Below the pieces are notes generated by a model, which was not told the origin of the DNA, searched no databases, and saw nothing but the letters and a program-made list of their open reading frames with translations. From positions 33,604,001-33,668,000 of the forward strand of contig OX597822.1 of the NCBI GenBank assembly GCA_951406725.2: a stretch of 64,000 bases of DNA, written 5' to 3'. The DNA comes from Octopus vulgaris (taxonomy: Eukaryota). Of the stretch, positions 26,263 to 63,335 are shown in pieces (positions within the stretch are counted from its first letter, which is position 1; each line of letters begins with the position of its first letter). The position numbers and the translations under genes are program-made.

Positions 26263-28315
26263 ATGTATGTATGTATGTTTTAGTGTATGAGTATGTATGA
26301 ATGCATTTGTGTATGTATGTAGTGGTATATGTGAGACAAAGATTCGGCTAAGTTACTAAAGCATCAAACAAAATGCCTTGCACTAATTTGTTCCAGTTCT
26401 TTACTCTGAGTTCAAATCCAGCTGAGGTCAACTTTGCCCTTCATCCTTCAAGAGTCGACAAAATAATTGTATCTGTCCAGGGTAGTGCTGGTGCCATGAT
26501 TATATTCCACCAAGTGCCACATGCTGTTTTAGTGTAAGATATTAAGAGGACCCTCTAGTCTTGACAAGGATGTGGCAATTGCTCTACAGGTGGTGACACA
26601 ATAAATTGTACTCAATACACTGGGAAATGAGGCAGGTGTTATGAAAGACATCCAATCAAAATCAAAAATTAAATTGCACAAAGCAGGAGGTGACCTACTA
26701 ACCTGTCTAAGGAGTGGTAATTATGAAAAAGAACTGGTTTGGACCATGAAAAACCTAGCCAACACCTATCAGCATAAAAAGCAACAATAAAAAGATGATG
26801 ACAACGAACATGATCATGAACATCATGATATATAGCCATACATATTTTAGTTTGTGTGTGTGAGAGAGAATTGGAAAAGGTGTGTCAAATTAATTGTGTC
26901 AAGCTCGTTACATAATTGTTCAGTCTAGTCTAGTTCAAGTTTTATTCAAATTATACACACATTTCTTTTCATCAAACAGTTCAATTTTCTCAGAAAAATG
27001 AAAACCCTTTGTCAATTTGCAGTCTTTATGCCGTGAGTGAGTCATTAGCTTTTAAAACTGGGATATTAGGACATCAACCTACAACTTTTAAAAAGTAATG
27101 TAAAATTTAAAAAGGTAGGGCCATAAAGACTTATATTTAGGTTTAACAAAGACATCCATTTACAAATTCATCAGATGAACAATGGTATTTATTGCTAATA
27201 AATGCATAGTGAGTCAGTGAATTTTGTGTTGTGCAACAAACCACAGGTGACTTGATGTAATAGTATAAACCTTTTCCCCCACCAAGATTTGAACTTGAGA
27301 TCAATTGATCTGATGAAGTATCAAAATACTGAAACCACATTTTGGCTTTTTTAAGTAGAGCCTGAAGGTCTTAATCTGAAGGATGCGTTTAGTAATCAGT
27401 TTGATTAGTATGAGACATTTTGGAACCAATGTTTTGGTACCACCTACTTCAAGTCTTTTAATTTGATGCTGACTTGCTTGACATCAGACATCTTGATGTT
27501 TCTTTTCTTCTCTCTCTCTTTCTCCTCTCTCTCTTTGTCTCTCTGTCTCTATTTCTCTCTTCCCTTTCTCTCTCTTTCCCTTTCTTTCTCTCTCCCCTTT
27601 CTCTCTCTCTTTCCCCTTCTTTCTCTCTCTCTCTCTCCTCTTTCTGTCTCTCTCTTTCTCAGTTTGTGTGTGAAGAGAGGGAGAGCGTTTATGTCAATCG
27701 TGTTCAATTAATAATTGTAATCTCTCACTCTCTCTCTCCCCATCTATCTCTCTCGATCTCTCCTTATTTCCCTCTCACACCCTCTCCCCATCTATCTCTC
27801 CATCTCTCACTCTCCATCTCTCTCTCTCCGTCTCTCTCTCTTGATCTCTCTCTTTCTCTCTATCTCTATCTCTTTCTCTCTTGCTCTCTCTCTCCCTCCC
27901 CATCTACCTCTCTTGATCTCTCTTTCTCACCCTTCCTTTCTCACCCTCTCTCTATCTATCTATCTATCTCTCTCACTCTGTGTCTTGAGCATACAATGCC
28001 ATGTACAACTACTACTGTATGAGTTAGAGCCCCACATAGATTATCATCATCCAACCAGCTTTAAGCATTTAGTTTAGTTGGCCACCGTACTTAGCACTTC
28101 CTTCTCTTAATACTTATAAATTACTTCATCTTCAAATATAACTTCAAATATTTGATCTCAGTAACAGAATGCAATAAAGTGTTCCATTTCAATGATCAGT
28201 TGCATTTAGGTATCCAAATGCATTTGGTACATCCAGTGCACAACTGCAATTAACTGCAATGGTGATACATCATCATCATTTAACATCTATTTTCCATGCT
28301 GGCATGGGTTAGATG

Positions 28316-33890: not shown

Positions 33891-34417
33891 CTTGCTCTCT
33901 GTCGCTCCTTCTCCCTGCTCTCTTTTCCCTCTGCCTGCTGCTATCACATGACCAGTGGCCAGTTCCTCTTTTTTCTTCCTTTCTTAGACTGGTCCCTTAG
34001 CTGACCAGTTGCAAATTCTCTGTCTCTCTCCATTCTCCATTCTCCATCCTTCCAAACATTTTCAAAATGTTAACCACTATTCTCATCTCTTTGGTTGGTC
34101 CCAAGGTTGAATTTTGTTTCACTGTTTGTCCTCGTCCACCATCCTAAATCACATGCCGTTTCATTTTGCTTGTTTTGTTTTTGTTTTGTTTGCTCTTGTC
34201 CCTAATTCTATGCAAGGAAACTTCTTTTTGCAAGCACTGCCAATTGGGAAGCACTTAGTCTTATCGTTATAGGTGTGAAACTGAACGGTACTATTGGTCG
34301 ATAACTGATGAAGAATTACGGACCTTCTGTTTGTCTCCTGTTCATTTTTGCATTCAGTATATGTTATGTCGTCTGTTTATACATTTTCCATTTACACACA
34401 CACACACACACACATAC

Positions 34418-34459
<42 letters not shown>

Positions 34460-34463
<4 letters not shown>

Positions 34464-34800
34464 AATGATAAATCTCAGAGCGAGTTATCATTGTTTGATT
34501 TCACTTTTTCAATATCAGTGTCATATCGACACTGGAAAAAGTATATGTATTTGTGAAGGAATCTGACTTCTCGTCGACAACCATGATTGTCACACGCTGA
34601 TGAAAGGTAAACACCTTGAAACTCGGGTACGTGTGTATCATGTGTTGAAGACAGGGAGGATGACTCCCCTTCACAAATACTGACAGGACACAGATAGTGT
34701 GTCTATAGCCAGCGGGAGGAGGTGTCTTCCTGGGGCTACAAACTACAGTAGCATCCACCCTTTTGGGTTAGCCATATTCAAATGGCATATATGCATCACG
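34460..34800 (+). mobile_element. ~340-nt highly structured hammerhead-bearing element (retrozyme- or Penelope pLTR-like) inside a (TA)n tract
   Basis: Consecutive hairpins over the whole length, central hammerhead, (TA)n on both sides, no meaningful ORF. Confidence 0.6.
34573..34652 (+). ncRNA. Type I hammerhead ribozyme, apparently intact, with extended stem I
   Basis: CACACG (34591-96) - CTGATGA (34597-603) - AAGGT aaac ACCTT - GAAAC tcgg GTA - CGTGTG (34630-35). Stem I continues via CATGAT/ATCATG, CAAC/GTTG and GTC/GAC. Predicted cleavage after A34629. Confidence 0.9.
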
Positions 34801-34835
<35 letters not shown>

Positions 34836-41952: not shown

Positions 41953-42236
41953 TGAAGTACAAAGTACTGAAGTATAAAGAACTACTGTATTACAGATAGT
42001 AAATTAAAAAGAACAGTTGTCCTCAAAGATCATCACTTCAGATGCACTACATATATTCAACAGTGCAAAAGTGCAGCTGATCATTGAATTTCCTGAAATG
42101 TCACTCTTGTTTTTTCATGCAGATGGTGTCCCTAAGCATATAGAGTCAGTGACTTTTGCATTTGATTCTTTACTTGAATATGCAAATTTTTTCATGTCTA
42201 GTACTTCATTGTTTCAGCAAGTAGAATGACGTGTAC

Positions 42237-42280
42237 ACTTCACTGATGAGGTCTAATAAGACTGAAACATGGTTTGAAGT
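42237..42280 (+). ncRNA. Minimal type I hammerhead ribozyme
   Basis: ACTTCA - CTGATGA - GGTC taataa GACT - GAAAC atg GTT - TGAAGT. Stem I is a perfect 6 bp; the cleavage triplet is GUU. Confidence 0.75.
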
Positions 42281-62235: not shown

Positions 62236-62901
62236 GACTTAGATTAATACCTCTGCTTAGATTTTAGGAACTTCACTGTTGGCCTGTGACTGAGCAGTAC
62301 CTCTCCGAAGACATTAAGCCTTTTCTAAAACCATTACCTGGTTTAACACCTTTACCTAAAGCTCAGATGACTACAGTGGAGTCCATTTTGTTATAAGTAT
62401 TCAAACAAAGTTTCTGGTGTATGAAAACCTGATGCTTCTGCTGCACCATTTATCATTGCACCAACTTAAATGGTGTTGCTTTTCCTCTGCTACCTCTTTA
62501 ATACAGCACAAAAGCTAGCAATAAAGCTAGTATTATTAGGGCAGTGTGTGAACTTCATAACCATAAAGTTAAATTTAACATTGCTACATGCCATAAATAT
62601 AAAAATATAATATATACATACATATGTGTGTGCTTGTTTGTGTGTGTGTGTAATAATTTCATAAAAGTTCACTCCTTCAAATATAAGTTATTAGATATAT
62701 TTTCTACAATAAAGTATACACATACATGTCTATACACACACACATGCACACACACACACACCCCCCACACACACACATACACACCACACTTACTCAAACA
62801 CACACACATACATGTATATATCATCATCATCGTCACCATTATCATCATCATCATCATCATCGTCATCATTATCATCATCATCATTTTACATATACTTTCC
62901 A

Positions 62902-63335
62902 TTATTTAGCCAGAGGGGAAGCAGATAAGAAAATAATTGCCAATGTTCTGCACCGTGAGGACCAAAGACTTGAAGTATTTCGTGTTGCAAGACAGTGTGT
63001 GAGAGAGAATCGTGCTGTTGTAGGAGAGAAATGTGTCTGCATGGATGATGGTTCACTTGCACTAAACGAGGCTGCAAAGAGAGAGGTTTGGAGATGCCAC
63101 TATGAAAGGTTGCTCAATAAAGAGAATGAATGGGAGTAAGAGAGTCTGCCGAATGTTGACCCAACAGAGGGACCAGTTATCCGAATTCACAGTATCTTGG
63201 TAGATAAAGCAATTAAGAGTATGAAGACAGAAAATCTCCGGCCCATCTGGTATCACAGCAGAGATGCTCAAAATATCTGGCAGTGTCGGCTACAGCCGAG
63301 TCACCCGTATAGTTAACCAGGTGATAAATGAGGGC
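62902..63335 (+). mobile_element. RTE-clade LINE ORF fragment (region upstream of the RT domain), pseudogenised
   Basis: VFRVARQCVRENRAVVGEKCVCMDDGSLALNEAAKREVWRCHYERLLNKENEWE*..VDKAIKSMK, then after a frameshift GPSGITAEMLKISG. Confidence 0.85.

Follow-up and report, generated by a model that had tools for sequence, protein, structure and literature searches.

The window, that is the whole stretch of 64,000 nt of octopus DNA analysed here, contains an element (34460-34800) that lies between two (TA)n tracts and carries a hammerhead ribozyme motif. Its parts are as follows.

34414 to 34460, no strand: left (TA)n tract, part of the insertion target (TRF)
34460 to 34488, minus strand: inverted arm of 29 nt, the 'long' (L, tail-bearing) end of the unit; forms the first hairpin
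34485 to 34800, plus strand: direct arm with its end at the 'short' (S) site; covers 4-319 of the 353-nt unit of subfamily A
34503 to 34542, plus strand: hairpin in two parts; 5/7 pairs of the inner stem with double-sided changes across subfamilies
34547 to 34680, plus strand: long rod tipped by the hammerhead; subfamilies A and B differ in it by compensatory changes
34571 to 34590, plus strand: target site of a putative Tx1-type LINE, empty in the window copy; a 20-nt duplication in occupied copies
34583 to 34641, plus strand: type I hammerhead motif (sequence and covariation)
34621 to 34628, plus strand: short stem III (2 bp and tetraloop), self-complementary, predicted to pair between two hammerheads
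34687 to 34786, plus strand: four 3' hairpins, the best-conserved region across subfamilies
34801 to 34835, no strand: right (TA)n tract, part of the insertion target (TRF)

The predicted fold of 34460-34800 has a minimum free energy of -125.9 kcal/mol against -84.7 +/- 5.3 kcal/mol for 100 shuffled sequences (z -7.8, 0/100 shuffles as good), and the minus strand also folds strongly (z -7.3). All stem-loops noticed in the initial annotation were recovered where it had placed them (34461-95, 34503-42, 34547-59/34668-80, 34687-703, 34706-38, 34757-68 and 34771-86). The first of these does pair, but it is not a feature of the family, 34460-34488 being an inverted copy of the unit end. A 4-nt microhomology (34485-88) joins the inverted to the direct arm, and 34 nt of the 353-nt unit are absent from the sense arm. 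The element had been taken for a single inserted monomer; it is indeed inserted in (TA)n, but as a truncated copy with two arms, one in sense with positions 4-319 of 353, the other inverted and 29 nt long. Similarly short inverted arms of 18-22 nt occur at three other loci (L019, L021 and L373). The expected lack of a meaningful ORF and of a tRNA head was borne out: ATG ORFs lying fully within the element have at most 46 aa, and in the element ARAGORN found 0 tRNA genes and Rfam no match, so that a tRNA-derived SINE head is absent. A scan of the window for bacterial promoters and terminators gave nothing above chance.

The hammerhead motif comprises the core CUGAUGA (34597-603), a stem II of 5 bp (34604-17), GAAA (34618-21) and a bulged stem I in which 34583-96 pairs with 34630-41; cleavage is predicted after A34629 (GUA), and stem III has only 2 bp. 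Within the element the core pattern occurs on the plus strand only, giving one hammerhead. Agreement with the type I consensus and covariation speak for the proposed ribozyme, but Rfam does not recognise it: the window has 0 matches at the gathering score, and none of its 31 matches at E<=10 belongs to a hammerhead family. A loose core pattern occurs 9 times in the window, with 10.5 occurrences expected by chance. Motif and covariation are thus the basis on which it is assigned as a putative hammerhead.

Folded alone, the hammerhead is predicted to have an active form of -10.6 kcal/mol and a stabler inactive form of -16.2 kcal/mol. The stem III region has no predicted fold alone and forms a predicted duplex of -8.9 kcal/mol between two copies; it is self-complementary in all five subfamilies (A-E), with differing letters. 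These models predict weak self-cleavage of the monomer and make cleavage of a dimer plausible. A U3-A8 pair is functional in the hammerhead. In subfamilies C and E the core reads UUGAUAA, with both partners of the 3-8 pair altered, and 28 of the 38 cores in L001-L030 are identical to that of the window (overlapping loci still included). C3 and G8 pair functionally in the hammerhead (PMC11167929), and cleavage through double hammerheads has been described for retrozymes with a weak helix III (PMC7229834). Having only one hammerhead, the window copy would be unable to release a circular monomer itself; it is an ordinary dead-end insertion product.

Elsewhere in the window, a second, minimal type I hammerhead-like motif lies at 42225-42280 (core at 42243), with short stems I and II and a palindromic stem III, and is probably a remnant of the terminal repeat of a Penelope-like element (PLE). 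Weaker motifs resembling it are found at 27310 and 47515.

Copies, subfamilies and insertion ends

A search of the source genome (2.8 Gb, 227 contigs) gave 113 matches, with 40 of 2318 candidates scored, and the best full-length matches are 93-100% identical to the element. The exact 26-nt hammerhead core occurs 196 times in the genome and its reversed control 0 times, so the element is multi-copy rather than single-copy. The natural unit of subfamily A has 353 nt, and the tandem arrays that had been anticipated are present: copies longer than one unit wrap into this unit, with 1-3 units per arm in A. Sister subfamilies, which were detected as neighbours of other loci, are 79% (B), 71% (C) and 62% (D) identical to A, and a fifth, E, has a unit of 360 nt. 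Units measure 355-360 nt in C-E, arrays reach 23 cores, and D copies are 99-100% identical to one another. Subfamily D (L276-L287), whose unit of 359/360 nt is very young, forms two-armed arrays in which as many as 23 hammerhead cores occur; a 3'-seeded search for it gave no matches, but this search skipped common words. A further subfamily between A and B (L431-L436) is 86% identical to A, and contigs of three runs guessed to be RNA contain hammerhead variants resembling those of L431-L436.

Among 21 sequences of A-D, 24 of 74 pairs are altered on both sides, a value matched in 0 of 500 shuffles (slid controls 6-10), where the structure tested is that derived from the window copy and relatedness of the sequences alone can beat shuffles. 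One of five covariation measures (further pair types) was not above shuffles. Covariation is present in hammerhead stems I and II. RNAalifold, applied to an alignment of 30 sequences, lost the 5' stems because of truncated rows in the alignment and preferred an inactive core pairing. As the initial annotation had proposed, the family consists of non-coding units, each with a type I hammerhead, whose structure covaries.

Insertion ends were scored in 140 distinct insertions (A 66, B 30, C 19, D 25), after 35 overlapping loci had been removed by place. The outer ends lie at two fixed sites, S (about 321 in A) and L, about 45 nt further on in the next unit; 99 of the 103 outer ends of subfamily A are at S or L. 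Read in the hammerhead's sense, copies have fixed 3' ends and random 5' truncation. The suspected targeting to (TA)n is confirmed by 91 of the 103 A ends, which run into such tracts, as do 38/40 ends in D, 20/37 in B and 13/29 in C. When both ends of a two-armed insertion are at S or L, one is S and the other L in 56 of 57 cases (33/33 in A); the census holds further two-armed insertions, 12 with an irregular end and 4 running off the locus. Single-arm counts in B and D are biased because these samples were seeded with L-ended queries, and the window copy, whose short arm lies across a unit boundary, was for this reason scored as one-armed by the script. A second sample of 53 A loci, from the first 100 listed pattern matches, showed S+L in 20/20 two-armed insertions, an irregular end at 9 loci, and (TA)n at 65 of 80 ends; in this sample L385 and L386 are apparently a single insertion that was duplicated, and L416 is a repeat of L003. 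In subfamily E, judged by eye, 6 of 8 two-armed loci are S+L and the tail has 59 nt. Target duplications of 12-16 nt were seen at 7 of 15 loci inspected by eye, mostly picked for their non-(TA)n flanks; within (TA)n, the window copy included, such duplications are unreadable.

The pairing of S with L in two-armed insertions is the 'tail' signature of Penelope-like elements. A one-sided tail has been described for PLEs (bioRxiv 2021.04.23.441226), is called unique to them and spans the distance between two RT start sites (PMC11167929). The link to PLE machinery that the initial annotation had drawn is therefore upheld by the insertions themselves, with one S and one L end in 56/57 and 20/20 two-armed cases.

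A site-specific LINE in the retrozyme unit

Four census loci had more than 1 kb in common upstream of unit position 90. A longer parent element was considered for this common sequence and rejected, as it actually represents LINE insertions with a 20-nt duplication. The source is a LINE of 5.3 kb whose ORF1 has a CCHC knuckle and whose ORF2 combines endonuclease, RT and zf-RVT domains (Pfam); it is seen at L417:1240-6539 (G000:C7:108.54 Mb) and also at L418-L423 and L427-L456. It matches L1-type endonucleases, and the third Atlas cluster bears the TX1 name. Domain make-up and sequence-specific target suggest a Tx1-type LINE, a clade assignment made from these characters.

Seven of eight occupied sites read at both junctions have an 18-20-nt duplication of unit positions 90-109 (window 34571-90), and the eighth has a small deletion; the insertion site is 59 nt upstream of the hammerhead cut site. 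The 30 nearest LINE 3' ends abut a retrozyme at the unit site in 24 cases, the target followed by another LINE in 1 and other sequence in 5; as 6 of the 30 come from loci already known through the retrozyme search, the corresponding figure among the new ones is 18/24. Hosts belong to subfamilies A and C and to an intermediate 14% from A, with LINE ends that are 93-100% alike, which points to independent insertions. The retrozyme family is the target of a site-specific LINE, apparently of Tx1 type.

Sister LINE copies at L451, L452 and L455 have other downstream sequence that is common to the three, which suggests a LINE lineage with another target. An open frame at window 62687-63139 has no Pfam match, and its end presumably resembles a LINE ORF2 fragment.

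LINEs of the Tx1 clade target other repeats, such as Tx1L into Tx1D, Keno into U2 and Tx1-Mar into Mariner-N4 (Kojima, 2015, PMC4494074). The octopus LINE is like these target-specific elements in its CCHC-knuckle ORF1, its endonuclease-RT-zf-RVT ORF2, its one-nucleotide site in a multi-copy element and the occurrence of a tandem LINE at this same site, and differs from them in having a hammerhead retrozyme as target. In the accessible literature on Tx1 and hammerheads, including sections of PMC4494074, no retrozyme-targeting LINE is described.

Penelope-like elements and the RNA template

RT + GIY-YIG elements with a CX4CXXC linker are numerous in the genome and, as judged by this linker motif (bioRxiv 2021.04.23.441226), probably of Neptune type; scoring covered 150 of 6136 GIY-YIG candidates. 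At least three young families of Neptune type are present (L091:906-5670, L101:1826-4980 and L170), two of which end in (TA)n. Intact frames of 781 and 775 aa occur in two young families of this type, the 781-aa family having an upstream ORF. In two Neptune-type families (L096, L101, L119), a short and a long end likewise occur in (TA)n, the tails measuring about 35 and 27 nt. No homologous terminal repeat was found in four PLE families: the 3' ends of three carry unrelated minimal hammerhead-like motifs, and the fourth has no similarity to the unit in the stretch read. The A-D profile, run over 135 PLE loci, matched only separate neighbouring insertions. For the four PLE families examined, the element is thus not simply the terminal repeat of a Penelope family.

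There is no PLE protein match within the window, and matches in 6/212 and 2/53 retrozyme loci all lie apart from the unit except at L161. The idea that a copy might abut a Penelope ORF holds at this one locus, where, between two (TA)n tracts, a subfamily B copy is joined directly at its 5' end to a 415-nt piece of a Neptune RT (L161:878-1730), but not at any of the other PLE-bearing loci among the 212 and 53. The fusion is possibly a template switch; as a single case it could alternatively be a nested insertion plus a deletion. Several other candidates were rejected. L101 was considered as a PLE ending in the unit, but the PLE has a (TA)n of its own, in which it stops 600 nt before the match, a subfamily B copy inserted separately; L169, L179, L192, L102, L373 and L381, considered as PLE-unit fusions, are merely neighbours sharing (TA)n.

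We explain the element, with a probability of roughly 0.85, as a two-armed truncated copy of a 353-nt hammerhead-bearing non-LTR retrozyme that was likely inserted by PLE machinery from a likely circular RNA. The part of this explanation that concerns the family and the PLE machinery is very likely, and the step through a circular template is somewhat probable. Tandem copies would be transcribed, and adjacent hammerheads, pairing through the palindromic stem III, would excise a unit-length RNA that a host ligase would close. A PLE protein, probably as a dimer, would nick both (TA)n strands and prime at site S on one of them and at site L on the second, and reverse transcription would circle the template to yield products from a fragment to more than 20 units. 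In this scheme, the window copy with its one hammerhead would be a dead-end product.

A linear cleaved monomer would stop reverse transcription at unit position 149, and arms cross this position, so the template should be a circle or an uncleaved multimer. In 45 A insertions obtained with 3' seeds, 38 of 70 arms cross the cut junction intact, and the number of 5' ends at the cut site (4 within 5 nt against 1.7 expected, P 0.09, 70 arms) is not a significant pile-up. It is possible, though rather unlikely, that family and PLE machinery are as described but that uncleaved linear multimeric RNA, read through existing arrays, is the template and circles are a by-product. The predicted weakness of the monomeric hammerhead would fit, and for the Poseidon PLE in vitro uncleaved RNA is the dominant substrate, with the start site equal on both strands (PMC11167929). 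Three of 11 D arrays (L276, L277 and L282) are mosaic as well, with variants common to only some units, and since a pure monomeric circle does not explain them, multimeric templates, template switching, later conversion or assembly error are needed. One of the three, L277, has a partial 5-unit periodicity. What argues against the linear template is the homogeneity of units within arrays: 4 of the 11 D arrays carry a private variant in all or all-but-one units, in both arms where both were read. Units in the 11 arrays differ by 0.72 nt within (549 pairs) and 2.57 nt between arrays (495 pairs), and by 0.71 nt across opposite arms; the within and between values are 2.7 (only 3 pairs) and 10.4 in A and 3.3 and 41.5 in C. 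Arrays of 10-23 units at scattered sites, and a stem III whose self-complementarity is maintained through different sequences, also count against it. A closed cycle of 31-mers yields a 30-nt self-overlap of a contig. Such an overlap of 30 nt is present in a 390-nt contig over one D unit (one run, only guessed to be RNA), a hint of a circle that weighs weakly against the linear template, as a homogeneous tandem template could give it too. In four runs whose RNA nature is again a guess, contigs span the A unit and run across the cut site; in two large runs of unknown kind, most of the pieces listed have 60-80 nt.

The remaining alternatives concern the nature of the family. That the unit is the solo pseudo-LTR (pLTR) of an unsampled autonomous PLE is improbable. 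Its copies end exactly as PLEs do, retrozymes of Xenopus match pLTRs (bioRxiv 2026.07.22.740005) and the share of GIY-YIG candidates scored was small, but copies beyond one unit always wrap into the unit, and the upstream flanks of 26 one-armed copies have sequence in common only at the sites of the Tx1-type LINE, plus one 76% pair. The terminal-repeat comparisons, the profile over PLE loci and the position of the PLE protein matches, L161 excepted, point the same way. It is very improbable that the copies derive from a viroid-like RNA with RNA-to-RNA replication and no more than occasional reverse transcription: small circular RNA replicons are indeed similar in size and self-pairing (two A units folded as circles give z -9.0 and -8.7), and the heterogeneity of mussel circles left this possibility open (PMC7229834), but such replicons typically carry ribozymes in both polarities, whereas the element has a single hammerhead on the plus strand only, its fold is branched and not rod-like, and there are several genomic subfamilies of different ages. 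A DNA-level repeat (MITE, Helitron-type or satellite) with fold and hammerhead as relics seems to us hardly credible. Against the resemblance of two-armed copies to inverted repeats, and the presence of long homogeneous arrays, stand 3' ends that are fixed while 5' truncation is random (read in the sense of the hammerhead), the unequal arm ends, the 12-16-nt duplications and a catalytic core conserved with paired changes.

Relation to known retrozymes and meaning

Animal non-LTR retrozymes have units of 350-390 bp in mussel and 331/353 bp in axolotl (Cervera and de la Pena, 2020, PMC7229834; bioRxiv 10.64898/2026.07.22.740005). The octopus family is like them in its tandem 350-360-bp non-coding units with 42% GC and a highly self-paired fold, in having in every unit a single type I hammerhead whose stem III consists of 2 bp and a tetraloop, and in long target duplications (>4 bp) and the co-occurrence of PLEs. 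Its unit length falls within the 150-450 bp of such repeats, which occur as monomers and tandem multimers, and its GC content lies below their limit of 50%. It is unlike the published elements in its (TA)n targeting and in that no homologous pLTR was found. Circles and cleavage have been demonstrated for the published animal retrozymes, whereas the octopus family is known here from genomic sequence; conversely, PLE mobilisation was argued for them from co-occurrence and pLTR homology and is argued here from insertion ends. By the definition of an 'active' retrozyme (Li et al., 2026), the window copy with one hammerhead is not active, and loci such as L017 and L026 and the D arrays are. With plant LTR retrozymes (PMC4918200; PMC7229834; 2026 preprint) the family shares the nature of a non-coding hammerhead-bearing mobile repeat, but it has no LTR pair, a type I and not a type III hammerhead, and duplications far beyond 4 bp.

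The family also resembles Neptune-type endonuclease-positive PLEs in its partial tandems, inverted 5'-truncated arm and one-ended tail (Craig et al., 2021, bioRxiv 2021.04.23.441226; Frangieh et al., 2024, PMC11167929), as well as in its AT-rich or (TA)n targets and type I hammerhead. Unlike these elements it is without an ORF, and its tail is about 45 nt (A-D) or 59 nt (E) compared with the 30-40 bp described. The attached RT + GIY-YIG ORF that defines an autonomous PLE is absent from the family. Its hammerhead is full-size with a long bulged stem I, in contrast to the minimal form in PLEs of the octopus genome.

In the accessible literature on octopus or cephalopod hammerheads or ribozymes the family is undescribed; the 2014 PLE-hammerhead paper, Repbase/Dfam and supplements may already include its repeats. 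Cephalopods are unmentioned in the main text of PMC7229834 and in sections of the review PMC7761336, as are ribozymes, retrozymes and hammerheads in the main text of the octopus repeat annotation (PMC13282606). The tail signature is likewise undescribed in the accessible literature on retrozymes with tail and inversion. We infer that the family is an animal non-LTR retrozyme, with unusually direct genomic evidence for mobilisation by PLEs.

A broader reading is offered tentatively and is itself doubtful, namely a three-tier parasite system in which a Neptune-type PLE dimer copies a superfamily of circular hammerhead RNAs through rolling reverse transcription, its subunits acting on separate sites without terminal-repeat homology, and the Tx1-type LINE is specialised on the retrozyme. 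S+L pairing would then be near-obligate because the subunits of the dimer each bind a different start site. If this reading is true, the LINE rides on retrozyme transcription, and the host hammerheads would make the 3' end of the LINE RNA and in tandem hosts also its 5' end. Of 7 occupied sites with both junctions read, L417 alone has a complete upstream hammerhead, which counts against borrowed RNA processing.

The family extends retrozymes to what appears to be a cephalopod. The mobilising enzyme of animal retrozymes has hitherto been a hypothesis from co-occurrence and, in frogs, pLTR homology; the insertion ends provide a test at the nucleotide level, with two start sites, one per arm, as in PLEs. 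A 99-100% identical subfamily and intact candidate partner ORFs (781 and 775 aa) occur in one genome, and the questions of the PLE partner and of the circular template are directly testable with the in vitro PLE assay of PMC11167929, using linear versus circular templates.
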